From an uncultured Acetobacteraceae bacterium (lineage in GTDB: Bacteria > Pseudomonadota > Alphaproteobacteria > Acetobacterales > Acetobacteraceae): 24,000 nt of DNA. Both the position numbers and the translations under genes were made by a program. Below are positions 4,358-22,396 of this stretch, in pieces; the first letter of the stretch is position 1, and each line of letters begins with the position of its first letter. The DNA lies in NCBI GenBank assembly GCA_903918195.1, contig CAIXDS010000071.1:1-24000 (forward strand), written 5' to 3'. The notes under the pieces were generated by a model. It did not search any database, was not told the origin of the DNA, and saw nothing but the letters and a program-made list of their open reading frames with translations.

Positions 4358-4908
4358 CACTTCTGCACCGGTTGTTCGGCGGGAAAGACCCTTTGGGCGA
4401 TGTGCCACGGACCGGGCTCGAATCCGTGGACCGAGTCTTACTGCCCCAATCCTGCGCCGATGCAACGCAGGATCACCTGCGCGCGGCCGGCCGAATGGGT
4501 AACGAGGGATTGGCTGTCTGGTCAGGGGTCCAGGAAGGATCGACGTTCCGCGTGCTGACTGTAACCGCACCACGCCAGCGGGCAGTGAAGAGCGGACAAG
4601 GCGTGTGCGTGGTGCTGGACGGAGACGCTCTACACGGCCTCAACGTCTCGCTGCACAAGGCCGGCGAAAGGCTGTTCGCGCAAGTCCATTCCCATCCCGG
4701 CCGTGCTTATCATTCACCGATGGATGACCAATACGCCGTGGTCACGGCCGCGGGTGGGCTATCGATCGTAGTTCCCGACTTTGCCGTTCGGCCGTTTTCT
4801 GTCGGGGATTGTGCGATCTACCGCCTGACCCGCTCCGGCAAATGGACCGTGATGCCGAAACGGCGGGCGGAGGCGCTTATCTACGTCGTCAAGGACCAGA
4901 CTCCATGA
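4354..4908 (+). CDS. JAB/MPN (JAMM) metallopeptidase, BilC-like deconjugating/processing enzyme
   Basis: ORF 4231-4908; start at GTG 4354 overlapping the upstream TGA (GTGA 4354-4357). The JAMM motif H-x-H-x7-S-x2-D is 'HSHPGRAYHSPMD' at 4687-4725, with an upstream Glu in 'GNEGLAVWSG'. 184 aa. Confidence 0.85.
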   Translation: MTLLHRLFGGKDPLGDVPRTGLESVDRVLLPQSCADATQDHLRAAGRMGNEGLAVWSGVQEGSTFRVLTVTAPRQRAVKSGQGVCVVLDGDALHGLNVSLHKAGERLFAQVHSHPGRAYHSPMDDQYAVVTAAGGLSIVVPDFAVRPFSVGDCAIYRLTRSGKWTVMPKRRAEALIYVVKDQTP

Positions 4909-6434
4909 ACGTCGCCAGCTTCTTCGACCGGAGCGCGACTGCGGTTGCGCAGGTGCTGGGCGAATGCGATTCTGACCGGCTGAGGCTGAAGCTGTCGGGA
5001 TTGGCCGTGGCGCTCGCCTTTGACAGCAAGGCGGTGCGGGCTTCTGAGGGCGTGGCGACGCTGGAATTGGCGACCGACCTACTGGCGCGTTTCTACCCTG
5101 GACTTGGCCTTATCCCATTGGATGACGATCCAGCGACAGTCGCAATGGTAAGCAAATTGGGCGAAGCGGCGGGTGCAATACATCCGGGAATCGAATTGAA
5201 ACCCGAGATGTGTACGGTGTGTTGCTGCCTGATCGTCGGCAGCCGCGTTCCGGCTCTAGGCGTTCCCACCATATTCATCGGTTCGCACGGCTGGAACGCG
5301 ATACTGGACCCAAGCCAGCCAGTCGGAAGCCTGGACACGCTCAACCCGTTCGGCGCCGCGGCCGCGGCATGCGTCGGCGTCGCCAACGCTTTTCGCTTTG
5401 CCTTTGCGGATCTGCTGCCAGACACCCGACCGGATCGAGCCCTCGAATTCGATGTTCTCCATCATCGGCTTGGGCGCTGCTCGGTCGGCCCGGCATTGCC
5501 GGACCGAGTCGATATCGACGGCACCCACCTTGTCGGCCTGGGTGCCATTGGCCGCGCGGCGGCATGGTCGCTTTCCCATGCTCCGGCGCTGCGCGGCCGT
5601 CTCGACGGGGTTGATCACGAGGCGATCGAGGATTCTAATCTACAACGATATGTGGGGGCGACGCAGGCCGATGCTGCCGCTGGCGTGTTGAAGTGCCAAT
5701 CCGTGATGGCGATGTTTCGCGGCTCCGGCGTGCAGGTCGTGGAGCACCCGCTCACATGGGGCCAGTATCTGCGGTCCCGGGCTGATTGCCGTCTTGATCG
5801 GGTGGCCGTCGCGCTGGACACGCCGGACGACCGGATCTCCCTTCAAGCGGCGCTACCCCGCCGGATTCTGAACGCTTGGACGCAGCCGGGTGATCTGGGT
5901 GTCTCCCGTCATGGTTTCACCTCCGGCCCGTGCCTCGCCTGTCTTTACCTGCCAGAGCGTGAGGTGCCGAGCCTCTCCCACCTTGTGGCGGATGCTATTC
6001 GCTTGCCCGAGTTGGAAGTTCGCGGCCTGCTGCATGCCGGCTTTCGAGTAGACGCCGCGTTCTTGGGGCGGGTCGCGCTCGCAGCAGAGGTGCCGCTGGA
6101 AGCTTTGCTACCCTTTGATGGCCTGCCTCTACGCTCGTTCTACACGAAGGCGGTATGCGGCACGACCTGGTTCGGTACCGGCGCCGGCGGCGACCGGGGT
6201 GCAATGGCGGTGCCGATGGCATTCCAGTCCGCGCTCGCCGGTGTTCTGCTCGCCGTCGAAATCGTCGCCGACGCCGTGATGTTGCGCACAACGGCGATGG
6301 CACCGCTCACAAAAATCAATTTACTCAAGCCGCTCGGAAGCCGTTTGGTGGAACCGGCCGCAAAACATAAGTCTGGCCAGTGCATCTGCCAGGACGACAC
6401 ATATCGTGCGGCCTATCAGCGGAAGTATGCCTAA
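4905..6434 (+). CDS. E1-like ThiF/MoeB-family adenylating enzyme with an inactive N-terminal lobe and an active C-terminal lobe (BilD-like)
   Basis: ORF 4809-6434; ATG 4905 overlaps the JAB stop (ATGA 4905-4908). The Rossmann motif 'LVGLGAIGRAAAW' (GLGAIG 5535-5552), 'DHEAIEDSNLQRY' and 'ALDTPDDR' lie in the C-terminal half. Cys pairs 'CLACLY' and 'GQCICQ' look like a zinc site. A helical insertion 'LSHLVADAIRLPELEVRGLLH...FYTKAVCGTTWF' carries a candidate catalytic Cys. The N-terminal ~220 aa lack a nucleotide motif. 509 aa. Confidence 0.85.
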   Translation: MNVASFFDRSATAVAQVLGECDSDRLRLKLSGLAVALAFDSKAVRASEGVATLELATDLLARFYPGLGLIPLDDDPATVAMVSKLGEAAGAIHPGIELKPEMCTVCCCLIVGSRVPALGVPTIFIGSHGWNAILDPSQPVGSLDTLNPFGAAAAACVGVANAFRFAFADLLPDTRPDRALEFDVLHHRLGRCSVGPALPDRVDIDGTHLVGLGAIGRAAAWSLSHAPALRGRLDGVDHEAIEDSNLQRYVGATQADAAAGVLKCQSVMAMFRGSGVQVVEHPLTWGQYLRSRADCRLDRVAVALDTPDDRISLQAALPRRILNAWTQPGDLGVSRHGFTSGPCLACLYLPEREVPSLSHLVADAIRLPELEVRGLLHAGFRVDAAFLGRVALAAEVPLEALLPFDGLPLRSFYTKAVCGTTWFGTGAGGDRGAMAVPMAFQSALAGVLLAVEIVADAVMLRTTAMAPLTKINLLKPLGSRLVEPAAKHKSGQCICQDDTYRAAYQRKYA

Positions 6435-8081: not shown

Positions 8082-8288
8082 CGGCGAGGCGACCTGCATG
8101 GTCGTTCCGGAATCCTCTGTGGGTCACGAAGATGGTTTCCATACTGGGAGCTTCTGCGACTTCAAGCAGGTGGCCACGTCAGGATCTGTCGTCGTTACGT
8201 GCTATCTGCTTGGGTAAGCCAGACAAGACAGGGAGACAAGCTGAGCCATGAAGCCGATTCCCGCCTCGAAGTCGTGTGTTGCTCGCCC

Positions 8289-8906
8289 ATGACGAACCTT
8301 TGCCCGCGTAGCGGGCACGTCGTGCTGCTCGGCGACTCGGTTTTCGACAATGGTGCCTACGTCGCAGACGGGTTCGATGTCGCGACGCAACTGCACCAAG
8401 CGCTGTCGCCAGCTTGGCGGGCCACGCTGGTTGCTCGGGACGGGGCTGTTGCCGGCGATCTTCCAAACCAAGTCGCACAGCTGCCGGCTGATGCCAGCCA
8501 TCTACTGGTGAGCGTCGGGGGCAACGATGCGCTGGGACACCTGGGCGTGCTCGATGAGCCGGTCGGCTCGGTGGCCGAGGCCCTCGAACGGCTCGCCAGC
8601 ATTCGTGACGCCTTCCGCGCCGATTACCTCGACGCCGTCACCGCCGTGCTGGCTCTCGGCCTGCCGACCTGGCTTTGCACCATTTACGAACCACGTTTTC
8701 CGGAACCAGCGATGCAGCGCGCTGCCATCGTCGCGCTGTCCATCTTCAACGACATCATCACGCGCGCCACGGCAATGCACGGGGTGGACCTGCTCGATTT
8801 GCGGGTGCTGTTCAACGAGGACGGGGACTACGCGAACGCGATCGAGCCCTCTGCCCATGGTGGCGAAAAGATCGCTCGGTCCATCGTGCGCGTGCTGCTG
8901 GCCTGA
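8289..8906 (+). CDS. SGNH/GDSL-family hydrolase
   Basis: ORF 8199-8906 trimmed to ATG 8289. Block I is 'VVLLGDSVFDNG', block III is 'LLVSVGGNDAL', and the C-terminal block V-like segment is 'AIEPSAHGGEKIA'. 205 aa. Confidence 0.8.
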   Translation: MTNLCPRSGHVVLLGDSVFDNGAYVADGFDVATQLHQALSPAWRATLVARDGAVAGDLPNQVAQLPADASHLLVSVGGNDALGHLGVLDEPVGSVAEALERLASIRDAFRADYLDAVTAVLALGLPTWLCTIYEPRFPEPAMQRAAIVALSIFNDIITRATAMHGVDLLDLRVLFNEDGDYANAIEPSAHGGEKIARSIVRVLLA

Positions 8907-9008: not shown

Positions 9009-9440
9009 TCATTCCTCACCCGGCAACGGTACGTGCCGAACGCTCCGGTAATGGTCATCAGGCAGGATCGTTTCCCCGTGTGCCACGATGCCAAAGCAGT
9101 CTGTGATGAGGCGGACGAACCCCGGCTGGTGCAACTGCCTGTCGGCCCGGATGACGAAGCGCCGTGCCACGGAATCATAGAGAACACGGCCACGTGGCCA
9201 TTCCTCGTATTCGGACCAGACTGGAGCCGTTGGAATTCCATCTCCGCGGAGTGCACGCGCGCCACGGCGGGCCAGCCGCGACCAGTGCTCAAGATGGCCC
9301 GTGTCCACGGTCAGCATGTCGCCATAGGCCTCGGCCCGTTCCAGCGGGACGGCCAGTGCGATGACGGTCGATTTTCCGCCCTCCTCGACCACCCAGAACG
9401 GGCCGACCATCCCGCCTCCGTCTGGTTTCGCCCCGTTCAT
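9009..9440 (-). CDS. Hypothetical protein (143 aa) translationally coupled to the DUF2779 gene
   Basis: ORF 9009-9503 trimmed to ATG 9440, which overlaps the upstream stop (ATGA on the minus strand, 9440-9437). G/C-rich third positions. Conserved-looking segments are 'GPFWVVEE', 'SEYEEWPRGRVLYD' and 'RFVIRADRQL'. Family not recognised. Confidence 0.65.
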   Translation of the reverse strand: MNGAKPDGGGMVGPFWVVEEGGKSTVIALAVPLERAEAYGDMLTVDTGHLEHWSRLARRGARALRGDGIPTAPVWSEYEEWPRGRVLYDSVARRFVIRADRQLHQPGFVRLITDCFGIVAHGETILPDDHYRSVRHVPLPGEE

Positions 9441-10921
9441 TGCTGCGCCAGCTTTGCCAGAGCGCGGTGCACCTCGACCATGGCAAGCGTATCGCGCTGG
9501 CAATAGGCGCGCAGCGCGGCCTGCAACCGATCGGCTTCCTCGGGAACCGCGAGAACGCCGGAGGCTAACTGCAGGAACGCCGCCGCCGCCGCGAGTCCAT
9601 CGGCGATGCCGTCGAGATCGTCGTAACCAAAGCCGGGGCGGAGGGCGGGAGCAACGGATTTGATCGAGTTGCTGAAGCCGAACTCAGGAAGGTAGACGGT
9701 ACCGCGCACGATCGGCAGCAGGTCCAGCAGCCGGGCGATGATCGCGGCGATCCCCGAGCACAGATCGGAGAACCGCGCCGCCAGTTCCTTCAGCTGCGTC
9801 TGTTCATAGGCCGAATAGACGATGATCGGCCCATCGAAGGCCCCGAGTGCCTCGATCAGCGTTTCGGCGAATCGGCGCCGCGGATCTTCGCTGCCATCGG
9901 CGAGGAACTCCCGGTGATGCAGGGCACCGTCGTCGGCGATCGCGTGCAATGACCATTGAAAGGGAAGAGTCTGGTAGGGTCGCGTCCCTTCGTAGAGCGG
10001 GATGGGTGGCATCATCGCCTCGAAGTCCAGGTAGCAGGCGGGAGGGCCGTAGCCCGGCAGCAGGCGTGCCAGATCGGGAGCGATGTAGGGCCGCCCGCTT
10101 GCGGTCGCATCGCGGATGATGGCTTGCTTTCCCGTCAGCGGGAAATCCGCCGGGATTGCTGAAATGGCATCGATGCCGCGCGCCTGGAGCTCGCTCGCGC
10201 GGGCATGCGACAGACGGGGGAGATAGGCGATCCAGTCGGCCGGCTTGTGTGCCGTGCACCGGTCCCAGTACTCGCACTCATAGGGCGCGCGGCACTGGCT
10301 GCCCGGCTCGGCATCCGGAGGCTCGGCCATGCGCAGACATGCCCGCATGGCGGGCAGCGCCGCGGGCAGGTCGCCAAGCCTCTTCGCCACCTCGGCACCG
10401 ATGTCGCTTCGGGCGAAGAACTCCGGCCAACTGATGCCGCCGGCCCCGCGAACATAGGACGTGTTCACATGGAGATGCTCGACGGATGGGATGGGGATGC
10501 CAGCGCCCCTGAGAACGTGGAGCTGAAGAGCAATGTCGTCGACATGATGGTCCTTGACGCTGGCGCTGCTCTTCACTTCCCGTAGTCCCCAGGTCGCGTT
10601 GCCCCGCCGTTCAAGCACGTCCACCCGGATACGGATATCGTCGTGCTCGAACGCGGCCTCGAAGATCGCCGGCACGCCCGTATCGTCCATCAGCGCGGCC
10701 GTGCGGGCGCGGGCTTCGGCATGCTGCCACGGTTCCTGGTCGACGAGCACGCCACCAGGAAACAGCAGGTACGCCTTGCGGCCGATCTGCTGTCCGATGT
10801 CCAGCGGGGATCCCGGCAGTGGTTCCTCGTAATTCGGCGGCTCGTTGACCAGCAGCCAGAGCCGGCGCAGGCATTGCAGACCGGCGATGTAGCGCGACTT
10901 GGTGAGATGCTGACCGGGCAC
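9437..10921 (-). CDS. DUF2779-type protein: N-terminal Cas4/RecB-like PD-(D/E)xK nuclease with a Cys cluster plus a C-terminal RNase H-like exonuclease domain
   Basis: ORF 9437-11089. Family N-terminus 'LTKSRYIAGLQCLRRLW'. Nuclease motif 'IRIRVDVLERR...WGLREVKSS'. Cys cluster 'QC...CRAPYECEYWDRC'. C-terminal 'CYLDFEAMMPPIPLYEGTRPYQTLPFQWSLH'. Start moved to GTG 10921 because the 56 upstream codons have clearly lower GC3; ATG 11089 remains possible. Confidence 0.85.
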   Translation of the reverse strand: MPGQHLTKSRYIAGLQCLRRLWLLVNEPPNYEEPLPGSPLDIGQQIGRKAYLLFPGGVLVDQEPWQHAEARARTAALMDDTGVPAIFEAAFEHDDIRIRVDVLERRGNATWGLREVKSSASVKDHHVDDIALQLHVLRGAGIPIPSVEHLHVNTSYVRGAGGISWPEFFARSDIGAEVAKRLGDLPAALPAMRACLRMAEPPDAEPGSQCRAPYECEYWDRCTAHKPADWIAYLPRLSHARASELQARGIDAISAIPADFPLTGKQAIIRDATASGRPYIAPDLARLLPGYGPPACYLDFEAMMPPIPLYEGTRPYQTLPFQWSLHAIADDGALHHREFLADGSEDPRRRFAETLIEALGAFDGPIIVYSAYEQTQLKELAARFSDLCSGIAAIIARLLDLLPIVRGTVYLPEFGFSNSIKSVAPALRPGFGYDDLDGIADGLAAAAAFLQLASGVLAVPEEADRLQAALRAYCQRDTLAMVEVHRALAKLAQQ

Positions 10922-11193
10922 TGATTGCGTCCGAGGTGGATGCAGAATCCTCCACGCCCCGATTGTTGTCGGCAACCGGAAATCGTCGCGCCTGGATGTG
11001 ACCACGTCCGCTTCTGTCGTGGCGGTGGCGTATTCTTTCGGAACGCCGCAGTGACAGGAGGCCACCGAACCGGCTATGACACGCTCCATGCCATGAGCAC
11101 CTGACCCGAGACCTCTTTGACGCTCAGGAATCAGCCCGCACTCGGACTCTGTCCGGACGGTCTGGTCCGCGTGTGTTCATCGAGGAGGTCCCC

Positions 11194-11517
11194 GTGTTCC
11201 AGGTCCAGGTTCCCGTTGTCATCGTTCCGTCCACCGAGGCCCGCGCGGCGCTCGGCGTTCAGCTTCGCCCGGCCGGGCTGGCGGCCTGGTGTGAGCTGGC
11301 CCGCCGTGGCCGGGGCCTCGAGATGGCGCATTTCCAGATCGTCCATTCGGGTGTGACGCTGGCTGTCTGCTCACGCCTGCGCAGCAATGGGTTCATCGAA
11401 ATCGGCCTTGGTCTCGGCGACCCGAGGCAGGCGGCCCGCGTCATTCCCGAGGCGCAGCTTCGTCGGGCCGAGGCCCGCGTCAGGACCCGCGCCGGTCAGC
11501 CGCCGCACCGTCGGTGA
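11194..11517 (+). CDS. Hypothetical protein (107 aa)
   Basis: ORF 11173-11517; GTG 11194 has GAGGAGG 5 nt upstream. High GC3 throughout. Followed by a stem-loop terminator. No family recognised. Confidence 0.45.
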   Translation: MFQVQVPVVIVPSTEARAALGVQLRPAGLAAWCELARRGRGLEMAHFQIVHSGVTLAVCSRLRSNGFIEIGLGLGDPRQAARVIPEAQLRRAEARVRTRAGQPPHRR

Positions 11518-11551: not shown

Positions 11552-11815
11552 CCCGTCAGCACGCCATCCGAAAGCTGTGATCGATGTCGCAATTGACAGC
11601 CGCCGCCGGCGCGGCCTATCCGTCCGGTTCCGTAAGCACCTGTCTGCCCACCCGAGCCACCCTGTCCGCCATCCCGCCGGCCCTCGGTCGCGCGGGCATT
11701 TTGCGTTCAGCGATGACCAACGCAGCGGCGAAGGCCGACCTGCGCGTTCCTGCACGACTAGGTTTGACGCACGACAGGCGCATCTCTCCCACGCGTGCGG
11801 TCAGGAAAAACTGAC

Positions 11816-13939
11816 ATGACCATTTCCGAGTATATGGAAATCGAGCACGCCGCGCCGGCGCGGTCGGTCAACAGCGGGCGGTGCCTGGCGCTCCGCTGCG
11901 CCCGCAATGTCTGCGCCGCGGCCTCCCGCCGCTCTCCAGAGGCCCGGGCGGTTGCCGACTGGCTCGCCGAACATGCCGAGGCACTCGGCCTGCCCGATGC
12001 GGCGCCGCCGGAGGAGAGCATGCCCGTCGGCACGCAGCGCCGCCGCGGCGTCTCGGCCGAGGTCTGGGACTGGGTCGGGCAGACGCTGGAGGATGCCTGG
12101 AACAGTGAGGCCGCCGCGGCGAACACGGCGGCCGAACGCTGGGCCAACGCCATCGCCGCCAGGCTCGCGCTTGATCCGGCGGAAGCGTCGGTCTTCTCCC
12201 TGGCGCTGCATTACCGGCTGGACCAGCGGGTCGAAAACCTGTTCGACGCGGTCAGCCAGTCCCGCGGCGGCCGGTCACAGCTCCACCGCGATGTGGCGCT
12301 GATCGGGCTGCTGCTCGGGGAAGCCGAGGCCGGGATCGAGGCGCGCCTGATGCCTGAAGCTCCGCTGCTGGCCAGCGGCCTGCTGCATCTCGACCGGGAC
12401 GGCGACCTGATGGTCCTGCACCAACTCGTCTGCCTCATCCGGCGGAACACCCCCCCGGGCGCCGATCTGTACGACCACCTGCTCGGCAAGGCGGCGGGCG
12501 ATCCGCTGCCTTGGGAGGCGTTCGCACATCTCGGCCGCGAGGCGGAGGTCGCGGCCGAGGTGCTGCGGGCGACGCTTGCCGCGCGGGAGAGCGGCGTCAA
12601 CATCCTGCTTTACGGGCCGCCGGGCACCGGGAAGACCTCATTCGCCGCCACCCTGGCCGCCCATGTCGGCGCCCGGCTGCGGCCGGTGACGGAAGCCAGC
12701 GAAAGCGGTTGGGAACCCCGGCGGCACGAGCGCCTGGCCGGGCTGCTGTTGGCCCAGCGCCTGGCGGCACCGGGGGAGACGCTGCTGTTGTTCGACGAGG
12801 CCGAGGACCTCTTCGTCGCCCGCACCTATCGGGACGGCGACTTGGTGGCGAGTTCGCGCGTCTTCATGCATCGCCTTCTCGAACGCATGACATTGCCGGT
12901 GATCTGGACCGCGAACGACATCGGCGCGCTCGGCCCGGCGGTGCTGCGGCGGATGACGATGTGCCTGGAGCTGAAGGTGCCGAACGTGGTGACGCGGACC
13001 CGGCTCTGGCGCCAGATGGCGACGGCGGAAGGTGTCGCGTTGCCGGAGGCCGACGCCGCCCGCCTCGCCCGGCTGGTTCCGGCCGCCCCCGCCGTCGCTT
13101 CCGCCGCGCTGCGGGCGACGCGCCTCGCCGGCGGCGGGGCGGAGACGGCCAGGCTGATCATCGAGGGCGTGGCGCGCGCGGTGCAGGGCGGTGGCCTTCC
13201 GCTGCCGGAGCCGGAGCACGATGCCGATTACGACCCCGCGCTGGTGAACGCGGATTGCGACCTCGCGTCCCTGACCGCCGGTCTGGTGCGGCAACGTGCG
13301 CCGCGCGCGGTTTCGTTCCTGCTGGCGGGACCGCCGGGCACGGGCAAGAGCGTCTGGGTGCGGCACCTCGCGGCGCGGATGGGGATGCAGGTGCTCCAGA
13401 AGCGTGCCTCCGACCTGCTCAATTCGTTCCTCGGCGGCACCGAGCGGAACATCGCCGACGCCTTCGCCGAGGCGCGGGACACCGGCGCCTTCCTGGTGTT
13501 CGACGAGGCCGACAGCCTGCTGCTCGACCGCGCCGACGCGGTGCGCAGCTGGGAGATCAGCCAGGTCAACGAGATGCTCACCTGGATGGAGCAGCATCCG
13601 TTGCCGTTCGCCTGCACGACCAACCTCCCGGCCCGCCTCGACCGCGCCAGCCTGCGCCGCTTCCTGGTCAAGGTCAGCTTCGACTGGCTGACGCAGGCCC
13701 AGGCGCGGCTGGCCTTCCGGCGGTTCTTCGGCATGGCGCCGCCCGCGGGACTCGACGGCCTGCTGACACTGACGCCCGCGGATTTCGCGCTGGTCCGGCG
13801 GCGCGCCGCGGTGACCGGCGCCACGGCGAACCAGGCGGCGCTGCTGCGTCTGCTGGCCGCCGAGTGCGAGGGCCGGGTCGGCGGGCGGCTGCAGGTCGGG
13901 TTCGCGGCCAGGGCGGCGGGTGATTGCGATGCCGCATAG
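11816..13939 (+). CDS. Tandem classical AAA+ ATPase (two AAA modules, Cdc48/VAT-like arrangement) with an unassigned ~250-aa N-terminal region
   Basis: ORF 11795-13939; ATG 11816 (AGGA about 9 nt upstream). AAA1: Walker A 'GPPGTGKT' 12614-12637, Walker B 'LLLFDEAEDL', 'WTANDIGALGPAVLRRM'. AAA2: Walker A 'GPPGTGKS' 13328-13351, pore-loop-like 'NSFLGGTE' (FLG 13427-13435), Walker B 'FLVFDEADSL', second region of homology 'TTNLPARLDRASLRRF'. 707 aa. Confidence 0.85.
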   Translation: MTISEYMEIEHAAPARSVNSGRCLALRCARNVCAAASRRSPEARAVADWLAEHAEALGLPDAAPPEESMPVGTQRRRGVSAEVWDWVGQTLEDAWNSEAAAANTAAERWANAIAARLALDPAEASVFSLALHYRLDQRVENLFDAVSQSRGGRSQLHRDVALIGLLLGEAEAGIEARLMPEAPLLASGLLHLDRDGDLMVLHQLVCLIRRNTPPGADLYDHLLGKAAGDPLPWEAFAHLGREAEVAAEVLRATLAARESGVNILLYGPPGTGKTSFAATLAAHVGARLRPVTEASESGWEPRRHERLAGLLLAQRLAAPGETLLLFDEAEDLFVARTYRDGDLVASSRVFMHRLLERMTLPVIWTANDIGALGPAVLRRMTMCLELKVPNVVTRTRLWRQMATAEGVALPEADAARLARLVPAAPAVASAALRATRLAGGGAETARLIIEGVARAVQGGGLPLPEPEHDADYDPALVNADCDLASLTAGLVRQRAPRAVSFLLAGPPGTGKSVWVRHLAARMGMQVLQKRASDLLNSFLGGTERNIADAFAEARDTGAFLVFDEADSLLLDRADAVRSWEISQVNEMLTWMEQHPLPFACTTNLPARLDRASLRRFLVKVSFDWLTQAQARLAFRRFFGMAPPAGLDGLLTLTPADFALVRRRAAVTGATANQAALLRLLAAECEGRVGGRLQVGFAARAAGDCDAA

Positions 13940-13958
13940 AAGAAGGCAGCATGCCGCC

Positions 13959-15005
13959 ATGAGGTATGGACCAGCAGAACGTCTGCTGCGCCTCGCCCGC
14001 TCTCTGGCGGCGACCCGCACCGGGCTGACGCTCGACGAAATGGCCGCCGAGCTTGAAGTCACGCGGCGGACGGCCGAGCGGCTGCGCGATGCCCTGATGG
14101 CCATGTTCCCGGAAATGGACAGCCAGGATGGCGACGACCGCACACGGCGCTGGCGGCTGCCGGGCAGCACCCTGATCGGGGTGCTGGAACCCCGCGCCGA
14201 GACCGTGGCCGCGGTCGAAACCGCCGCGCGCGAGTGCGAGCAACGCGGCGAAGCCGACCGCGCGGCGCTGCTGCGCGATGCCGCGACCACGCTGCGGGCG
14301 GTGATGCGGCCGGATGCCCTGCGCCGCACCGAGACGGGCATCGCCGCGCTGATGGAGGCCGAGGGCATCGCGATGCGACCGGGACCGCGGCCGGTGCTGG
14401 CTGCCGGGGTCCTGCCGACGTTGCGCCGGGCGATTCTGGGCATGCAGCCCGTCGTGGTCCGCTACGCGGGGCGCGATGCGGAGGAACCGGCGACGCGCAT
14501 CTTGTGTCCGTACGGCATTCTCTACGGCGGGCGCGGCTGGCTGGTCGCGCATGTCGAGAACCTACCGGAGATGCGGCTGTGGCGGTTGGATCGGATCGTT
14601 TCGGCCGATCGGCTCGAACGTTGCTTTCTGCGACGGGAAGATTTTTCGCTAGCGGCCTATGCGGCGCGGTCCTTCGGGGTGTTTCAGGAGGAGCCGATCG
14701 ACGTGGTGCTGCGGTTTGAACCGGAGGCGGCGGAGGACGCGGCATCCTGGACGTTTCATCCGTCACAATTTATCGTGCGGGAAGCGGATGGTTCTCTGAC
14801 CGTGCGGTTCCGGGCGGGCGGGGTGCAGGAGATGTGCTGGCATCTGTTTGCGTGGGGGACGGCGGTGACGGTGGTGGGGCCAGAATCGCTACAGGATACG
14901 ATCGCAGTTCTTGCGCGGGCTCTCGCCCAACACCACGCGAGGATCAGGGCTTGCGTTGACATATCAAACAAATCTGATGGCGGAAGGCACGATCATGCCA
15001 GATGA
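13959..15005 (+). CDS. HTH-WYL-WCX transcriptional regulator (YafY/PafBC-like)
   Basis: ORF 13920-15005; ATG 13959 lies 19 nt after the AAA+ stop. HTH: 'RLLRLARSLAATRTGLTLDEMAAELEVTRRTAERLRDAL'. WYL: 'VVVRYAGRDAEEPATRILCPYGILYGGRGWLVAHVENLPEMRLWRLDRI'. WCX-like: 'SLTVRFRAGGVQEMCWHLFAWGTAVTVVGPESL'. 348 aa. Confidence 0.85.
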   Translation: MRYGPAERLLRLARSLAATRTGLTLDEMAAELEVTRRTAERLRDALMAMFPEMDSQDGDDRTRRWRLPGSTLIGVLEPRAETVAAVETAARECEQRGEADRAALLRDAATTLRAVMRPDALRRTETGIAALMEAEGIAMRPGPRPVLAAGVLPTLRRAILGMQPVVVRYAGRDAEEPATRILCPYGILYGGRGWLVAHVENLPEMRLWRLDRIVSADRLERCFLRREDFSLAAYAARSFGVFQEEPIDVVLRFEPEAAEDAASWTFHPSQFIVREADGSLTVRFRAGGVQEMCWHLFAWGTAVTVVGPESLQDTIAVLARALAQHHARIRACVDISNKSDGGRHDHAR

Positions 15006-16314
15006 GGCCCAGATACGAGACTTCTTTGCGAGGGTACGCGGCATTGCCGAGGCGACGCGACTGGCGGGATCAGCGATCGCCCGCGCAGTTGCTCCGCGTT
15101 TCTGCCCTGTTGCGCTGTTTTATCCGAACGAAACTGACCTGAGTCGCGTGCTCGCATTCCTGATTGATCCGACCGCCAATCACGGGCAGGGAACGATGTT
15201 TCTGCGTCTCTTTCTTGATGTCGTTGGGTTGCCTGAATGCGACGATCGGGAGGACGGGATTGACGTTTCGACAGAATATGTTTTGAGTCCCAGTTTGCGT
15301 CGCGCCGATATCGCTGTCAGTTATACCCGTCTGGATAGGCAACGAATTCATTTGCTGATCGAAAATAAGCCGTGGGCTGGCGATGGTGTAGATCAGCTTT
15401 CTGATTATTCGAAATACCTGAAAACTAAATATCAGTCTACGCCATGGGCAATTGTTTATATTCCATCGACGGAGCGCGACCCTGGCGCGCACTCCGTCGA
15501 TGAGAACTGCTTCCAAACCCTTATCGCGAATCGTAGTTTATTTATCTTACCGTATGTGTCGAAGCAAAGAGAGAGATCGATTCAGGAATGGCTCAAACGC
15601 TGTGAAGCAACCTGCGAGGCTGAGGAGCCTCGGCGTTTTATTGGTGCCTTCAGGCGCTATCTTGCAGAGAATGTTCCAGATACTGGAGTTGTTCAGATGA
15701 GCGATGCCGAACGGTCGGTTGCGCAGATTTTGCTGAAGTTCTTGCAGGAACGCGACGAAGATATAAATATCGCACTGGAGGTACCAAAGGCGCTCGCCAG
15801 CCTTCGGAATGATCTGGCCAAGAAGATTGGGGATCGGATCACGGAGGGGATAAGAAGCAGGTTGCAGGGTGGTGACTGGCAGATCGAATCGAACTTTACG
15901 ACCGAGCAGTGGGCCGGCTTGGGCATTTACCGTTCTCGTTGGCCAAAGGGAATGACAAAGAAAAATCAAGAAAGTCAGTGTTTCGTTGGTATCGAGTTTC
16001 ATGGCAGCTTTAAACAGGCCCACTACGGTGTGGCGGGGCACAGAGATATGCTTGGGGAGCTCAGGGGACCTATCAGGGAGGCTGCGAGCGAGTATTTGCG
16101 GCTCGCCGGGGACCGGGATTGGTGGCCAGCCATATTAAATTTCGAACAGCCATTGGCCGATTGGCTATCGGATGAGTTCCTGCACTTCGCCCGACGCGTA
16201 CTGCGCGACGAGGAAGAGTCGTCGGCTGTTGTCAACAATTTGGTTACATGTATTGTTGAGGTTGCCAAGAAAGTCGACGAAGTGGTCACCAGGATGCAGC
16301 CCGATAAGGCGTGA
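14995..16314 (+). CDS. PD-(D/E)xK nuclease superfamily protein (PDDEXK_4-like N-terminal domain, unassigned C-terminal half)
   Basis: ORF 14911-16314; ATG 14995 has GGAAGG 7 nt upstream and overlaps the WYL gene end by 11 nt. 'ETDLSRVLAFLIDPTANHGQGTMFLRLFL' is followed by the nuclease core 'RRADIAVSY...RIHLLIENKPWAGDGVDQLSDY' (Asp codon 15307-15309, E-N-K 15361-15369). Sampled blocks are about 47-52% GC. 439 aa. Confidence 0.75.
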   Translation: MPDEAQIRDFFARVRGIAEATRLAGSAIARAVAPRFCPVALFYPNETDLSRVLAFLIDPTANHGQGTMFLRLFLDVVGLPECDDREDGIDVSTEYVLSPSLRRADIAVSYTRLDRQRIHLLIENKPWAGDGVDQLSDYSKYLKTKYQSTPWAIVYIPSTERDPGAHSVDENCFQTLIANRSLFILPYVSKQRERSIQEWLKRCEATCEAEEPRRFIGAFRRYLAENVPDTGVVQMSDAERSVAQILLKFLQERDEDINIALEVPKALASLRNDLAKKIGDRITEGIRSRLQGGDWQIESNFTTEQWAGLGIYRSRWPKGMTKKNQESQCFVGIEFHGSFKQAHYGVAGHRDMLGELRGPIREAASEYLRLAGDRDWWPAILNFEQPLADWLSDEFLHFARRVLRDEEESSAVVNNLVTCIVEVAKKVDEVVTRMQPDKA

Positions 16315-16336: not shown

Positions 16337-19300
16337 CTATTCCGGATCAACCCGCACCATCCGCCCCGACGTCATGAACACCACCAGCCCCCTGGCGGCA
16401 CCAGTGGCGCGGAGATAGGTGCGAACCTGCGCGGCGTACCCGGCGATCGCCGCCGCGTCAGGCGCCACATCGCTCTTCCAGTCGATCACCATTTCCGGCG
16501 CACCGCCGGCCGACAAGGCCACGGCGTCGGCAATGCCGAGAACCACTTCCTCACCGGCGTCGCCGGCCGCAGCGGCGCAGACGTTGAATTCCGGCACCAG
16601 CGAGGCGCGAACGGCGTTGACATCCGGCAAGGCCAGGGTGCGGAGCACGGACGCTGCGAGTTCGGCCGGATCGGCGTCGTCCACCGGCTCGGGACAGGTG
16701 GCCGCGAGTTCGGCGGCACGCACGCGCAGTGCGGCCTCGGTGTCGCCGGTCTCGCCCGTCAGCACCTCCTCCATCAGCTTGTGCAGCACCAGGCCACGCC
16801 CACGCCCGCCCTGGGGCAACGGCGGCGGTTCCGGCTGGTCCGCGGCGTCCAGCACCACCGGCTCCGGGTCCGCCTCGCCGCTTTCCGCCCGGCTCGGCGT
16901 CACCCGCACCAGGCGGGTGGCGCGGGCGGTGATCAGCCCGGCCTCGGTCGTGAAGGTGGCCGCGTCCTGGCCGTTCGCCTCCTCCGTGTGCACCGGCAGA
17001 ACCGAGGGCGGCAGCCCCGCCTGGTCGAACGCCGGCAGCGTCCGGACCTCAAGCGGCACTGCGGCGCTCCAGGCGGAGTCCGAGAGCTTCGCTGCAAACC
17101 GCGGCAACAGCAGCAGGTCGCGCGCCCGCGTCGCCGCCACGTACCACAGGCGCTGGCGTTCCAGGCCCATCTGCGCGGTCTCGTCCGCCAGCGCCGCCGC
17201 GCAGCCGGGCGGGTCCACGCCCAGGATGCGGGCATGCAGCAGCCCGGTGGCGCGATCGAGCACCGGGGGGCGCGGACCGAACACGCCGCCTGATGTGTTC
17301 ACCGGGATCACCACCGCCCATTCCAGCCCTTTGGCTGCATGCATGGTGATCAGCGAGACCGCCTCCTGCTCGGCGTCCGGCCGCGCTTCCTGTGTTCGGG
17401 TCTCTTCCTGCCATTGCGTGCGTATCGCCCGTGCGAAGGCGCCGAGGCCGCGAGTCTCCCAGCCGCGGGCCATCTCCAGGAAGGCATCGACGTTTGCCAG
17501 CGCCCGTTCGGCACCGCGGCCGAAGCGCTGGCGCAGTACCGGGCGGACCCGCATTTCCTCGACCGCCTGCGCCAGCAGGACATAGGGCGTGGTGGCGCGC
17601 GCGCGGCGGGCCAGGCCCTGCAAAATCTCCAGTGTTTCCCTCAGCACCGGCTCGGCGACGTTGACGATGGGCAACCATAGGTTCAGCCGCGCCGGCCTTC
17701 CATCGGCGGCGGGCGGCACCGCTTCCAGCGCGTCGAGCAGCGCTTCCTCCGTCATGCCCACCAGCGGCCCTCGCAACAGCGCGCCGAGCGCCAGCGTGTC
17801 GCGCGCATCCGCGAGTGCCCCGGCCAGCGCGATCAGGTCCTGCACTTCCTGGCGGCGGAAGAACCCTTTTCCCGCCTGCGTCGCCACCGGCAGGAAGCGG
17901 TCCTCAAGAGCGCGCTCGTAGCGCCAGAGATCGGTACCGGTCGGGGCCAGCAGGGCGATGTCGCCGGCCCGGCAGGGGCGCGTCGTTCCGTCCGATCCGC
18001 GCACGGCGAAGGCGCCGATCAGGCGGCGGCAGGTTTCCGCCACTTGGTCCGCCTCGGCGTCGCGCAGCGAAGCGGCGTTTGTCTCGGCAGCTTCAATGTC
18101 CAACGCACAGACGCTGGCGCGCTCGTCGAGCGCCGCCGCGGTGCTGAACAGCGGCGCAAAGCCCGGCTGGCCCGGCGCGCCGAGGGGAGCGGCGAAGCGT
18201 TCGTTCACCCATTCCAGAATCGGCTCCACCGAGCGGAAGTTGCACCCGATCGCCAGCACATTGTCAGGCGCGCCGGCGCGCAGCGCGTCGCGCGCGCGAA
18301 CGTAGGTCGCGACATCGGCGCCACGGAAACGATAGATCGCCTGCTTGGGGTCGCCGACCAGGAACAGCGCCCCGTCGCGCAGCCGCCAGTCGGTCCAGGG
18401 CGCGTCCGTGTGACCGGCCGGCGCGTCGCCGCAGAGCCGCCACAGGATTTCGGCCTGCACCGGGTCGGTGTCCTGGAACTCGTCGACCAGCACGTGGCGG
18501 AACCGGCCGGCCAGCGCGGCGCGCACGGCAGGGTTTCCGGCCAGCAGGTCGCGGGCGCCGTGCAGCAGATCGTCGAAATCGAGCAGCCCGGCGGCGCGCT
18601 TGGTTTCTTGGAAGCGGTCAACGATTGCTTGCAGGTCCGGCGCGAGCCGGGCCAGCAGCGTGCCTGCCGCGGCAGCCCGCAACTCGGCGTGGCCGGTTTT
18701 GCAGGCGGCGTAGAGAGCTGTGGCCTCGTCGTTCAGACGATCGGCCTCAGCCTTGCTGCCTCGGCCGCCCAGCGTCGTCTGCCAGGCGCCTTTCTTGCGA
18801 TAGGCTGCGAACGCACCCGCTGCCGTGCTGCAGGCCTGAGGGACCGGCAGGTACAGCAGCGCGAGAAGCCGCGCGATGTCGCCGGCAGCACCGTCCGGCA
18901 GCCCGGTCAGCAAATCCTCGAGCCCCTCGGCAACTTCCTTGATGAGAGGCTCGCAGATCGGCACGCCATCAACGAAGACCTGCAACGCTGCCACCGCTTG
19001 CCGCAGCGCCGCACAGGCCCCCTCCAGGTCCGGCGCAGGCGGCAGAGTCGCGCCCCGATGCTGGCGCAGCATCTGCGCGAAGCCGGCGATCAGCTCCTCG
19101 GGTTTTCCTTCGTCGAGCAGGAACAACGCCGCCAGCGCATCGTCGCCGGCGGTATCGCTTGCCAGCCGTTCGCGCAGCACCTCCTGCACGGTCTCGTCGA
19201 ACAGCAACGCCGCCTCGCCGGCATCGGCCACGGTGGCACCGGGGTCGGTCCGCGCCTCCACCGGCCAGGGAGTCAGCAACATGCGGCAGAAGCCGTGGAT

Positions 19301-19663
19301 GGTTGTGCAGGCGAGCGCATCGATCCGCGACGCGGCCTGCATCAGCGCCGCGTGTTGCGCCGCGGTCAGCCCCTTTGGCAGCGCCGCTGCCAGATCACGC
19401 GGCACCTCGTTGCGGCAGAGCGCCATCACGAAGCGCTCCACTCGCTCACGCAACTCGCTCGCCGAGGCTTCGGTGAAGCTGATCGCGGCGATGCTCTCGG
19501 GCGCTCGCCCGGCCGCGAGCAGCAAGGCGATGCGCCCGGCCAGCACCGAGGTCTTTCCCGATCCGGCTCCGGCCTCGACAAGCAGCGTGGCATCAAGATC
19601 GGTGAGCGCCCGCAGCCGGCTGGCGGCGTCCGATCGTGCGAGAGTGGCAACGCTTGACATCAC
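16337..19663 (-). CDS. AddA-like UvrD/Rep-family helicase with a C-terminal RecB-type nuclease
   Basis: 1108-aa ORF. Walker A 'EAGAGSGKTSVL', motif II 'VLVDEFQDTDPVQ', motif III 'LFLVGDPKQAIYRFRGA', 'CNFRS', 'ITMHAAKGLEW' and 'LWYVAATRARDLLLL'. C-terminal nuclease 'GIADAVAL...EMVIDWKSD...YAAQVRTYL'. Start is GTG 19663 or ATG 19660, both overlapping the upstream stop (19660-19662). Confidence 0.9.
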   Translation of the reverse strand: MMSSVATLARSDAASRLRALTDLDATLLVEAGAGSGKTSVLAGRIALLLAAGRAPESIAAISFTEASASELRERVERFVMALCRNEVPRDLAAALPKGLTAAQHAALMQAASRIDALACTTIHGFCRMLLTPWPVEARTDPGATVADAGEAALLFDETVQEVLRERLASDTAGDDALAALFLLDEGKPEELIAGFAQMLRQHRGATLPPAPDLEGACAALRQAVAALQVFVDGVPICEPLIKEVAEGLEDLLTGLPDGAAGDIARLLALLYLPVPQACSTAAGAFAAYRKKGAWQTTLGGRGSKAEADRLNDEATALYAACKTGHAELRAAAAGTLLARLAPDLQAIVDRFQETKRAAGLLDFDDLLHGARDLLAGNPAVRAALAGRFRHVLVDEFQDTDPVQAEILWRLCGDAPAGHTDAPWTDWRLRDGALFLVGDPKQAIYRFRGADVATYVRARDALRAGAPDNVLAIGCNFRSVEPILEWVNERFAAPLGAPGQPGFAPLFSTAAALDERASVCALDIEAAETNAASLRDAEADQVAETCRRLIGAFAVRGSDGTTRPCRAGDIALLAPTGTDLWRYERALEDRFLPVATQAGKGFFRRQEVQDLIALAGALADARDTLALGALLRGPLVGMTEEALLDALEAVPPAADGRPARLNLWLPIVNVAEPVLRETLEILQGLARRARATTPYVLLAQAVEEMRVRPVLRQRFGRGAERALANVDAFLEMARGWETRGLGAFARAIRTQWQEETRTQEARPDAEQEAVSLITMHAAKGLEWAVVIPVNTSGGVFGPRPPVLDRATGLLHARILGVDPPGCAAALADETAQMGLERQRLWYVAATRARDLLLLPRFAAKLSDSAWSAAVPLEVRTLPAFDQAGLPPSVLPVHTEEANGQDAATFTTEAGLITARATRLVRVTPSRAESGEADPEPVVLDAADQPEPPPLPQGGRGRGLVLHKLMEEVLTGETGDTEAALRVRAAELAATCPEPVDDADPAELAASVLRTLALPDVNAVRASLVPEFNVCAAAAGDAGEEVVLGIADAVALSAGGAPEMVIDWKSDVAPDAAAIAGYAAQVRTYLRATGAARGLVVFMTSGRMVRVDPE

Positions 19664-22305
19664 GCGGCCTCCCAGATCTCGGCCGCCGGACCGAGCAGGA
19701 CGGCGGCAGCTTCGCGCTTGCGCTCGAAAACACTGCCTTGTTGGGACGGCAAAGCGAAGGCCAAGTCGTCGTAATCGCCTCCGGTGTCAGGCCCGGGCAC
19801 AGCCAGCCCGGCCTGCAGGGCCGCCAGGCTGTGGTTTAGCGCGCTCACCAGCGTGGCGAGCGCTCCGTCGGGATCGGGGAGGGGATAGTACGGTGTCTCA
19901 GATCGCGGATACAGAAGCGCGGCCTCGACCTCCGTTTCCGTCCCAAGCAGCGCGCGCACCGCGGCAATATACAGGCATCGCTGCAGCTCCCCGCCGCCGG
20001 CCAGCACGCGGCCGGCGATGTCGCGCGGCGGGTTGCCGGTCTTGAAATCCACCACCCGCGCTTTGCTGCGGTTGCCGGCGAGATCGAGCCGATCGATCTG
20101 TCCCGTGAGGGCAAGCGACGTCCCGGGGATTTGCACCGGCTGCGCCGCATCCCAGGGCATCGCGCCCTCCGGCGGCTCATCGACGTTGAACGGCACTTCG
20201 GGCCAGGTGGTCTGGCCGTCCAGGGCGCGAAGCGGATGAGAGAGCGCATCGGTTGCGAGCGCGGCGGCCTGGTCGAGTGTCCGCCGCCAAAGCAACGGTG
20301 GCGGCAGAGGCATGCTCGCCTGCCAGCGCAGGCCGATCCGGCCGGCTTCGCCGGCGACCGCAGCGGCGATCTGCTTCGGCTCGTCGCCGGCCGCGTCTTC
20401 CGCTGTCGCCAGCACGCGGAGAGAAGCGGCGATGATCTCATGCGTGAGCGTGCCGAAGGTGAGGGGATCGAGGCGGAACGGCTCGGCCTCTTCGTCGGGC
20501 GCCCGCAGGCCGAGCGCATACTGCCAGACGAAGCCGAGCGGATTGCGCAACAGCTTCTTCAGCGAGGTCGCGGAGTGGTGCCGCGCCAGCACGCGTTGCA
20601 CGGCCGGGTGCCCTGCACGGACCAGACCGTCATGCGGCGTGATGCCTGGGGAGAGCCAGTCGCGCCATACAGCGTCGGCTGCCTGCGCCCGCGGCTTCCT
20701 GGCGAACTCGGCCGGGCGCGCCATCAGCCGGTCAGCCTCGCTCATGGCATGCGAAGGCACGGCGGCGCGGCGCAGGAAACGCGCGCCGGCATCGGGCAGT
20801 AGCGGCGAGCGGCCGAGCAGGCGGCCGGTGGCATCACGGCGGCTGCACGACAGCACCAGTTCGCGCGCCGTTCCGCCGCAGATGCTGGCGAAGTCGCGCC
20901 GGTCGGCCTCGGCGACCGGCAGCACGTCGAGCACGGCGGCGGGGACCAGGCTGGTAGGCAGCAGCGGGTCCTCCCGGCTCTGCCGCGGCCAGGACTGTGC
21001 GTTCAGGCCCAGCAAGCGCACAAACGGACGCGGTGCGGCGGCCAGTTCGGCGGCCGGCCCCCAGATGATGCTGCAGGCCGGATCGGCGGGATCGGTCACA
21101 CGCAGGGAAGAAAGCGACCGTTCGATCGCCGCGGCACTTTCGCGGTCGAGGGCGCGGCGCCACAGCGTGCGGGCGAGGCCGCACAGGATTGTTTCGCCGG
21201 CTTCGGCAGCCGCCTCCGGCCTACGATGCAGCAGCTCGACAACCGGCATCAGCACGGCGGCCACCGCCGCGCCATCCTCGCCGGCGTCGTCGCAGACAAT
21301 CTGCCAGCGGGCCGGGGTTCCGAGCGGCGCACCCTCTGGGAGCACGCGCCGCCAGGTTTCCGGCAGGGCGTGCAGCGCTCCGCCGGCCGGCGCGGCCAGC
21401 GCGACAAGGCGGCGCAGTCGTGCCTGCGACAGGCCCCGCAGCAGGATGTCGGCCAGCGCGGCGGCGGTCTGGCCCTCGCGCGTGAACAAGGCCGGCCGGC
21501 CATGGGCGAAATGCAGCTGCAGGTTGGCGTCGGCCACCGCCGCCTCGACGATGTCGTCGAAGGCGGCCGGCGAGGCGGCAACGATGGCTATCTCCTCGGC
21601 GCGCGCCGCACCGCTGGCAAGCAGGGCGCGTGCCCAGCGCAGGGCCTCGATCACCTCGTGCCGCGCGGTCGCGCAGCTCACAACTGTTGGCGTTGCTGCG
21701 GTGCTGGTGGTCCGGCGGATGGCGACTTCCGTTCCGTCCAGCCAGGCCGGCACCTCGCGCGCCCCGGCGTGCCACGAGACTGGCACATGCGATCCGAGCT
21801 CCAGCAGAAGACCCTGCCAGACCGGCTCCAGCGCCGTCATGCCGTGCACCTCAACCGGGCCGGTGACAACAGGCGCATGGGCGAGCCGCCCCCGTGCCGC
21901 CGCCGCGAGTTCGGCCGGGCGCAGCATGCCGGGCGGGAGGCGCTTCAGCACGTCGGCCTCAAGCGTCGCCAGCGTGGCGAAGCGCGGATGCTCCGCCGCG
22001 CGCGCCTGGAGGTCGATGCAGGCGCGCCAGGCCTTGCCGAGGGTGGACGCGAGCGCGAGTTGCAGACCCGGCAGGTCGCCGATTGGCGCAAGATCCCCAA
22101 GCGGTGCCGCGGCGGGATCCTGCAGCACCTCGCCGAGCGCCGCGGCGAGCGCCTCCGCATCGATCGCGCGCAGAAAGCCGCCAGCCAGCCGAGCCGCCAG
22201 CCCTGGCATGCTCATCACCTGCACGCCATGCTGGCCAGCGCGGGCGGCCTGGAGCCGCGCCTGATCGGCGGCGAGGCGGCCATAGGTTACGATGGTACAG
22301 CGCAT
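19660..22305 (-). CDS. AddB-like PD-(D/E)xK nuclease subunit (no P-loop, no Fe-S cysteine cluster)
   Basis: ORF 19660-22344; start placed at ATG 22305 (GGAGA about 9 nt upstream), alternatives 22338/22344. C-terminal RecB nuclease motif 'GQIDRLDLAGNRSKARVVDFKTG...ELQRCLYIAAV'. Long helicase-like but Walker-less N-terminal body. Immediately upstream of, and overlapping, the AddA-like gene. Confidence 0.8.
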   Translation of the reverse strand: MRCTIVTYGRLAADQARLQAARAGQHGVQVMSMPGLAARLAGGFLRAIDAEALAAALGEVLQDPAAAPLGDLAPIGDLPGLQLALASTLGKAWRACIDLQARAAEHPRFATLATLEADVLKRLPPGMLRPAELAAAARGRLAHAPVVTGPVEVHGMTALEPVWQGLLLELGSHVPVSWHAGAREVPAWLDGTEVAIRRTTSTAATPTVVSCATARHEVIEALRWARALLASGAARAEEIAIVAASPAAFDDIVEAAVADANLQLHFAHGRPALFTREGQTAAALADILLRGLSQARLRRLVALAAPAGGALHALPETWRRVLPEGAPLGTPARWQIVCDDAGEDGAAVAAVLMPVVELLHRRPEAAAEAGETILCGLARTLWRRALDRESAAAIERSLSSLRVTDPADPACSIIWGPAAELAAAPRPFVRLLGLNAQSWPRQSREDPLLPTSLVPAAVLDVLPVAEADRRDFASICGGTARELVLSCSRRDATGRLLGRSPLLPDAGARFLRRAAVPSHAMSEADRLMARPAEFARKPRAQAADAVWRDWLSPGITPHDGLVRAGHPAVQRVLARHHSATSLKKLLRNPLGFVWQYALGLRAPDEEAEPFRLDPLTFGTLTHEIIAASLRVLATAEDAAGDEPKQIAAAVAGEAGRIGLRWQASMPLPPPLLWRRTLDQAAALATDALSHPLRALDGQTTWPEVPFNVDEPPEGAMPWDAAQPVQIPGTSLALTGQIDRLDLAGNRSKARVVDFKTGNPPRDIAGRVLAGGGELQRCLYIAAVRALLGTETEVEAALLYPRSETPYYPLPDPDGALATLVSALNHSLAALQAGLAVPGPDTGGDYDDLAFALPSQQGSVFERKREAAAVLLGPAAEIWEAA

Positions 22306-22396
22306 TATTTCGGGTCTCCGAGGTGCGACGGCGCTCATTCCCACGATTTCTTAGCATGATCCGGCATCCGAACCGCTGCAGCCGGCATCGATATTC

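Follow-up and report, generated by a model that had tools for sequence, protein, structure and literature searches.

A tandem AAA+ ATPase gene linked to a DriD-like WYL regulator in an Acetobacteraceae locus with an exchangeable nuclease gene

The DriD protein of Caulobacter crescentus is a transcription activator of an SOS-independent response to DNA damage and is itself activated by single-stranded DNA (ssDNA) (PMC9186387, PMC10853764). The published consensus sequence of its binding sites is ATACGAC-N7-GTCGTAT, and boxes of this type are found in the self-promoters of 68 of 69 alphaproteobacterial homologs (PMC10853764). Work on DriD in Caulobacter has so far presented it as a regulator that stands alone. 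Other WYL factors tie variable neighbouring defence genes to ssDNA or DNA damage in the CapW/BrxR islands and in the DdaA regulon of the Moraxellaceae (PMC11662680, PMC9122601, PMC12392091), and in the Moraxellaceae one WYL activator governs damage-response and defence genes alike (PMC12392091). The DNA analysed in this study, a stretch of 24,000 nucleotides from an uncultured Acetobacteraceae bacterium that is referred to as the window, contains an operon in which a gene for a DriD-like WYL protein stands between the gene for a tandem AAA+ ATPase and that for a PD-(D/E)xK nuclease. A preceding sequence-only reading of the window had described these three genes as one operon. The comparison with related loci indicates that the window harbours a variant WYL/DriD-regulated damage or defence locus and not a fixed three-gene system; on balance, it is probably an ssDNA-responsive regulon island of the DriD type, the core of which consists of an AAA+ unfoldase and DriD, with the nuclease as exchangeable cargo. 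The components of the locus are located as follows.

9437-11089, minus strand: gene for a DUF2779/TM0106-type RecB-like nuclease, divergent from the small open reading frame (ORF)
11004-11021: predicted DriD box 1, flanked by the small ORF and the divergent DUF2779 gene
11194-11517: small ORF of 107 amino acids, with a GTG start after a GAGGAGG ribosome-binding site
11754-11771: predicted DriD box 2, 44 nucleotides 5' of the ATG of the ATPase gene
11816-13939: AAA+ ATPase gene, 707 amino acids; two AAA domains in Pfam (PF00004 x2) and a weak N-terminal winged-helix match
13959-15005: WYL (DriD-like) gene, 348 amino acids; Pfam WYL E=2.4e-10, WCX E=2.9e-14
14995-16314: nuclease gene, 439 amino acids; Pfam PDDEXK_4 (PF14281) E=2.7e-15
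16337-23677, minus strand: convergent operon with genes for a 400-amino-acid protein, an AddB-like and an AddA-like protein
23660-23677, minus strand: predicted DriD box 3, 60 nucleotides 5' of the convergent operon

The ORFs of the ATPase, WYL and nuclease genes, their coordinates, their start and stop codons and the overlap of 11 nucleotides between the WYL and nuclease genes had been read correctly from the bare sequence, and the public gene calls contain all three products with exactly the same ends. The gap between the ATPase and WYL genes amounts to 19 nucleotides. The low GC content ascribed to the nuclease gene was likewise borne out (0.527 versus 0.727 in the ATPase gene, with 0.679 in the WYL gene), and the setting of the window is that of a defence island. 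The leader of 265 bp, by contrast, does not represent the 5' end of the unit, as a conserved gene of 107 codons that had been missed precedes it. A search of the window against Rfam matched no family, and a simple scan for sigma-70 promoters and terminators gave no usable information in this GC-rich DNA.

The assignment of the regulator to the DriD lineage is based on similarity over its entire winged helix-turn-helix, WYL and WCX architecture. Residues 1-323 of the window protein align with residues 5-325 of DriD from C. crescentus at E=1.5e-70 (PDB 9pfq and 8tp8; a further DriD structure is 7tzv). The recognition helices are nearly the same, with RRTAERLRDA in the window protein and RRTAERMRDA in DriD, and the residues R36, R37, T38 and R43, to which DNA-contacting roles have been attributed in DriD (PMC10853764), are identical in both proteins and invariant in ten ATPase-linked WYL proteins from several phyla. 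In the alignment, the equivalents of the ssDNA-cleft residues R204 and W206 appear to be kept, and those of Y192 and K202 appear to be replaced. In the PDB, the ATPase-linked WYL protein matches DriD and PafC and not CapW or BrxR, and a BLASTP comparison with the CapW homolog encoded in the window itself gave no significant similarity (E=0.57); membership in the CapW/BrxR clade was rejected on both grounds. The WYL regulator named in the sequence-only reading was thus confirmed with respect to its domains, whereas its description as a generic defence regulator has to give way: judged by its sequence, the protein is an ortholog-like homolog of DriD. The ssDNA binding and transcriptional activation known for Caulobacter DriD may, by analogy, apply to the window protein. 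Apart from the protein itself, the setting differs from that in Caulobacter, since the driD-like gene comes third in its operon, after the small ORF and the ATPase gene, and the boxes lie 5' of operon genes and not immediately 5' of the driD-like gene. The neighbour of driD in Caulobacter is a small hypothetical gene on the opposite strand, and no ATPase gene of this kind adjoins it. The window regulator resembles CapW/BrxR and DdaA in its variable defence-gene neighbours and differs from them in its DriD lineage and in being locked to an AAA+ ATPase gene that those systems lack.

The linkage of the ATPase and DriD-like genes was examined by searching a single genome from each species for relatives of the ATPase and was counted in the 80 best loci. 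The stretches of the relatives are numbered from L001 onward, with WIN denoting the locus of the window itself, and ORFs in them were called with a codon-position GC score. Relatives of the ATPase were present in at least 497 species, including Acetobacteraceae and other Alphaproteobacteria, Nevskiaceae, Pseudomonadales, Binatia, Nitrospirales, Latescibacterota and Acidobacteriota. A DriD-like gene directly follows the ATPase gene in 34 of the 80 loci, stands elsewhere in 3 and is absent from 33, the remaining 10 loci being too short; at the species level it is thus located directly 3' of the ATPase gene in 34 of 70 informative loci, mostly with gaps of 20-90 nucleotides. The identities of the ATPases and of the WYL proteins to the respective window proteins are correlated across the loci with r=0.935. 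The ATPase and the WYL regulator therefore represent a truly conserved, co-evolving pair. The pair also occurs in other arrangements, as in an Azospirillum locus in which the WYL and ATPase genes are divergent with a DriD box between them and a DUF2779 gene nearby in the locus. Neither the pairing of the ATPase with DriD nor a system composed of WYL, AAA and nuclease proteins is described in the searchable literature.

Two paralogs of the ATPase gene were observed in L067, in the order ATPase - WYL - ATPase, and also in L080. An ORF cluster (c59) that appeared downstream of the ATPase gene in Komagataeibacter was discarded as an apparently spurious GC-rich ORF. Another cluster (c23) apparently represents a real protein, which matched no Pfam family and escaped detection by tblastn with the WYL protein. 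The pair is also located on plasmids of Rhodobacterales. In plasmid pRsa of Fuscovulum blasticum (L092; NZ_CP020471.1 58875-75903), the genes for ATPase, WYL protein, ADP-ribosylglycohydrolase, HEPN protein, PD-(D/E)XK protein (848 amino acids) and UvrD helicase follow one another on one strand, succeeded by two hypothetical genes and the gene for a helicase-related protein; two DriD boxes are found there, 5' of the ATPase gene and 5' of the ADP-ribosylglycohydrolase gene. A Leisingera plasmid (L091) shows the order ATPase - WYL - ADP-ribosylglycohydrolase - PD-(D/E)XK within the stretch examined. These plasmid loci may constitute a larger form of the system in cultured, tractable hosts.

The second line of evidence connecting the ATPase gene with DriD is provided by the binding motifs. 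The Caulobacter didA site served as an independent probe, and a match was defined as a site with at most five mismatches near the ATPase start. Such matches were detected in 29 of 39 WYL-linked loci versus 5 of 43 WYL-less loci, at a background expectation of 4.3%, and three of the five WYL-less loci with a box are truncated contigs. A weight matrix trained solely on other loci, with the window excluded from training, detected three sites of at least 17 bits in the window, where 0.017 would be expected by chance; each of them is promoter-proximal and oriented toward the downstream gene. Box 2 appears as a phylogenetic footprint in otherwise diverged ATPase leaders, for instance as GCGTCCGTTTCTGACGCA in L014, at a position about 56-62 nucleotides 5' of the ATG of the ATPase gene; another footprint, corresponding to box 1, is present 5' of the small ORF in related loci. 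The operon of the window accordingly possesses the pseudo-palindromic box CGNC-N7-GNCG that is cognate to DriD, and in its relatives the boxes hardly differ from the didA site. These conserved sites lie at positions other than that of the candidate operator (11574-11600) previously pointed out in the leader; that palindrome is present in the DNA, yet the aligned leaders show no conservation of it beyond a shared TTGAC.

The search pattern ACGAC-N7-GTCGT with at most two mismatches was abandoned, since it gave 12 hits versus 12.4 expected over the window and missed the GCGTCC...GACGC variants. Two weaker DriD-like palindromes (8089-8105 and 8176-8193), each with one mismatch to ACGAC-N7-GTCGT, are located directly 5' of a GDSL-lipase-like gene (8199-8906). 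The second of them scored about 12.5 bits with the weight matrix and the first fell below the cut-off of 12 bits; by sequence, they may be further sites of the regulon or chance matches.

The ATPase was characterized by motif, profile and model comparisons. Its two Walker A motifs are encoded at 12614-12637 and 13328-13351, and the corresponding Walker B motifs (DEAE/DEAD) at 12794 and 13502. Both sets, along with the sensor-1 residues and the arginines of the second region of homology, are invariant in an alignment of 19 homologs. The second module (D2) carries the pore loop FLG (13427-13435, residues 538-540), which takes the form F/Y-V/L-G in 18 of the 19 homologs, whereas the first module (D1) has no such loop, as in p97. 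The tandem modules, their motifs and the pore loop described in the sequence-only reading hence hold and are conserved in the ATPase family. An AlphaFold model with a mean predicted local distance difference test (pLDDT) value of 76.8 gave Rix7/NVL, Drg1 and Cdc48/p97 as top Foldseek matches, and profile searches likewise group the protein with Rix7/NVL, Drg1/AFG2, Cdc48/p97 and Pex1/6. On the basis of this model and of the profiles, the ATPase is classified as a type II classical AAA+ protein with a fold nearest to those of Rix7/NVL, Drg1 and Cdc48. The formation of a hexamer and the threading of substrates are inferred from this family membership. Although the ATPase shares with the named proteins the two AAA modules with intact Walker motifs and the arginines of the second region of homology, its identity to them is just 17-21%, and its bacterial context is one of DNA-damage or defence genes. 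It also differs in its N-terminal 245 residues, which were modelled as helical with a winged-helix sub-domain (pLDDT 78.6) and gave no PDB structural match at E<1, so that the N domain is not the double-psi barrel of Cdc48-type proteins.

Known defence or housekeeping families did not accommodate the ATPase. Its best match in PADLOC and NCBIfam is IetA/IteA of the Gao_Iet system (E about 1e-24 to 1e-27), but the score with NF042959 is 85.9 bits versus a cutoff of 510 and covers one AAA domain only; moreover, the locus in the window contains no protease gene and thus not the IetS partner. Matches to TRIP13 and to CbbX/SpoVK proteins are at the domain level and far below the cutoffs, which sets aside a housekeeping affiliation of the CbbX/SpoVK type, considered earlier as a possible refutation of the proposed unit. 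A phage origin was rejected as well, since the match to phrog_10401 was accompanied by only one weak match in INPHARED and one in IMG/VR.

The nuclease presents a different picture. Its classification as a PD-(D/E)xK enzyme was corroborated by the Pfam match to PDDEXK_4 and by an intact D...ExK site (D105 and E123-N124-K125), of which D105, E123 and K125 are invariant in nine relatives; the motifs RADIAV and IENK are encoded at 15301 and 15358. The check with PADLOC that had been suggested for the locus was productive for this protein, which matches the candidate PDC-S26 (E=6.8e-23, residues 50-400), whereas the ATPase remained far below the IetA cutoff. The nuclease thus matches the PDC-S26 models over nearly its full length and keeps the D...ENK site. 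PDC-S26 is a candidate consisting of a single gene, for which the searchable literature records no anti-phage activity; the gene in the window, on the other hand, closes an operon with DriD boxes, and a close relative in L094 is paired with a homolog of the small ORF.

The position behind the WYL gene is occupied by variable genes. A PDDEXK_4 gene follows directly in about six independent loci (WIN, L002, L025, L033, L057 and L087), the nucleases being 17-46% and the ATPases 41-71% identical to those of the window; in L002 the respective values are 27% and 71%. Other genes in this slot encode HNH_2, REase-ARP, PDC-M15A, AAA_14/DUF4143, AAA_15/21 and GmrSD proteins, and elsewhere the slot contains ADP-ribosylglycohydrolase genes, genes for proteins without a Pfam match or housekeeping genes. 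The slot genes are frequently lower in GC content than the ATPase gene. The nuclease has few close relatives: one with 45% identity occurs alone, without the ATPase; one with 46% identity is found in L087 in the same four-gene order as in the window; and the one in L094 directly follows a homolog of the small ORF, neither an ATPase nor a WYL gene intervening. As the slot varies, nuclease relatives occur apart from the ATPase and the identities of the two proteins do not track each other, the nuclease is exchangeable cargo and not a fixed partner, and the trio should not be annotated as a three-gene defence system.

Whereas the data show the homologies, the gene linkage and the conservation and enrichment of the boxes, the following model of binding, induction and biochemical roles is inferred from them. 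The DriD-like protein would bind the three predicted boxes of the window, which can be proposed from their sequence. By analogy with Caulobacter DriD, the signal would be ssDNA, derived either from the resection of breaks or from the replication or degradation of phage DNA. The regulator would then alter transcription of the operon comprising the small ORF, the ATPase gene, the driD-like gene and the nuclease gene; activation is the Caulobacter precedent, and the direction is left unspecified. As a double-ring unfoldase of the Cdc48/NVL-like kind, the ATPase would probably pass a protein substrate through its D2 pore, and the best guess for this substrate is a DNA-bound or DNA-end-bound protein, because AddAB-like and DUF2779 genes recur in the neighbourhood. 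The nuclease would be horizontally acquired cargo that closes the operon at its 3' end and, being probably co-transcribed, could become inducible when DNA is damaged or infection occurs. On its own, it would probably serve as a DNA-cutting effector with a defensive or toxic action.

Several observations weigh against this model. No WYL gene was found in 33 of the 70 informative ATPase loci, and driD of Caulobacter lacks an adjoining ATPase gene, so the pairing is not universal for DriD. In Nevskiaceae, the ATPase gene stands alone 5' of dnaX. Box 2 of the window is a diverged copy with seven mismatches to the didA site and a score of 17.8 bits. In many loci the box lies just about 15-25 nucleotides from the estimated start, so that it could mediate autorepression instead of activation. 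The overlap of 11 nucleotides and the repeated recruitment of nuclease genes would also fit a functional partnership of ATPase and nuclease, and the nuclease may have a partner outside the model, because the small ORF adjoins a related nuclease gene in L094.

Among the Nevskiaceae and Panacagrimonas loci, L046, L051, L053, L061, L062 and L077 contain neither a WYL gene nor a DriD box, and dnaX and ybaB are located downstream of the ATPase gene; a TsaD-family (PF00814) gene lies 5' of the ATPase gene in the related loci L043 and L062. This synteny suggests a lineage in which the ATPase behaves as a core gene.

An integrated three-component defence system, in which the ATPase would activate, load or license a swappable nuclease module while the WYL protein senses and regulates, is unlikely but has to be weighed first. 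It would explain the tight packing of the genes with the WYL/nuclease overlap, the repeated occurrence of PDDEXK_4, PDC-M15A, HNH_2 and REase-ARP genes behind the ATPase gene or the ATPase-WYL pair, the fact that even the WYL-less loci L001 and L003 keep the small ORF, the ATPase gene and a nuclease-like gene in this order, and the repetition of the four-gene order in L087. However, many ATPase loci have no downstream nuclease gene, as in Nevskiaceae with dnaX-ybaB or where genes for LolA-like proteins or ABC transporters come next, and there is no domain shared among the cargo proteins by which they could dock on the ATPase. The relative of 45% identity that stands alone, another that is accompanied by the small ORF only, the uncoupled identities in L002 and the listing of PDC-S26 by PADLOC as a single-gene candidate point in the same direction. 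Since the modules are separable, an integrated system of ATPase and nuclease is disfavoured.

A quite improbable alternative assigns the ATPase to DriD itself: as a dedicated regulator and not an effector, it would reset or tune the response by the extraction or unfolding of DriD, or else of the small protein, from ssDNA or the operator, with the cargo genes as unrelated passengers. The strict co-inheritance with DriD across phyla (r=0.935) with short intergenic gaps, the position of the ATPase gene as first gene of the box-controlled operon and the winged-helix sub-domain in the N-terminal domain are compatible with such a role, whereas about half of the ATPase loci have no DriD-like gene nearby and DriD of Caulobacter functions without an adjoining ATPase of this type. 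Plain adjacency at an insertion hot spot, with a housekeeping, chaperone-like ATPase that has no functional link to the DriD-like gene or the nuclease, would account for the variable flanking genes, the accumulation of low-GC genes downstream and the Nevskiaceae synteny with housekeeping genes, but it is very improbable in view of the box enrichment in WYL-linked loci (29/39 versus 5/43), the three window boxes versus 0.017 expected, the co-varying identities of ATPase and WYL protein and the persistence of the association in arrangements such as the divergent Azospirillum pair.

Within the favoured model of a DriD-type regulon island, a more specific and distinctly doubtful proposal can be made. 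The unfoldase might be a core DriD-controlled effector of a widespread SOS-independent response to ssDNA and might strip proteins from DNA ends or lesions together with the AddAB-like and DUF2779 nucleases, with the 3' end of the operon serving as a docking slot that renders acquired nucleases inducible by damage or infection. If so, candidate targets would be protein-DNA adducts, complexes that have stalled and phage proteins that protect ends or counteract RecBCD, and the unfoldase would be a bacterial counterpart to the p97-dependent removal of chromatin proteins by extraction. The linkage of a DriD-like gene to a tandem AAA+ unfoldase gene behind a DriD box extends over many Alpha- and Gammaproteobacteria and several other phyla; should the ATPase prove to be an effector of the DriD regulon, a protein-remodelling arm would be added to SOS-independent damage responses. 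The variable nuclease slot suggests a simple route by which defence genes could become ssDNA-inducible, which would extend the picture obtained for CapW/BrxR and DdaA to an activator lineage.

With respect to the neighbouring genes, the convergent operon encodes the 400-amino-acid protein, which has no Pfam match and corresponds to phrog_5990 (E=8.5e-71), an AddB-like PD-(D/E)XK protein of 894 amino acids and an AddA-like UvrD helicase-nuclease of 1108 amino acids. The latter was rejected as an equivalog of alphaproteobacterial AddA, with a TIGR02784 score of 266 bits versus a cutoff of 860; because of this score and a partner with a PDDEXK_1 domain only, the genes are termed AddAB-like. By sequence, the operon looks like a paralogous, DriD-linked machine for end processing and not like the housekeeping AddAB. 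AddAB-like genes recur in WIN, L010, L028, L031, L078 and the Fuscovulum plasmid, and only the large, AddB-like PD-(D/E)XK nuclease was found within the stretch examined in L036, L045 and the Leisingera plasmid. Between the ATPase-WYL pair and the AddA-like gene, WIN, L010 and L078 differ, the genes there encoding PDC-S26, GmrSD and metallophosphoesterase proteins. The DUF2779 (RecB/Cas4-like) gene recurs in WIN, L007, L014, L087, L064, L082 and L093 in varied positions and orientations. Since its ORF in the window is about 50 codons longer than the homologs, the true start is probably near 10939, which would place box 1 inside the divergent promoter region.

The small ORF belongs to a family of about 111 representative clusters and precedes the ATPase gene in the closest relatives, the loci of the Acetobacteraceae type; searches of Pfam, NCBIfam, PHROGs and PDB all failed to match it. 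Homologs of the small ORF were observed directly 5' of the close relative of the window nuclease in L094 (5001-6721) and next to a Uma2 nuclease gene in L098. From these sequence contexts, the small protein may be a partner or regulator of cargo nucleases. Its 5' region (11040-11193) contains blocks that are conserved in relatives, among them ATGAGCACCTGACC and, near 11143-11155, the short inverted repeat CGGAC-TCT-GTCCG; no Rfam match was obtained.

The upstream part of the window, from 959 to 6434, has a GC content of about 0.60 compared with about 0.72 further downstream and contains the following genes.

959-2050: tyrosine integrase
2160-3179, minus strand: CapW-family WYL repressor (PDB CapW E=1e-52)
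3191-4357: Multi_ubiq/DUF2604/Metal_CEHH gene of a Bil-like ubiquitin-like operon that is divergent from the CapW gene
4231-4908: Prok-JAB gene of the Bil-like operon
4809-6434: Prok-E2_C+ThiF gene of the Bil-like operon

The CapW homolog and the Bil-like operon in this stretch constitute another WYL-regulated defence module of the window, which is independent of the first.

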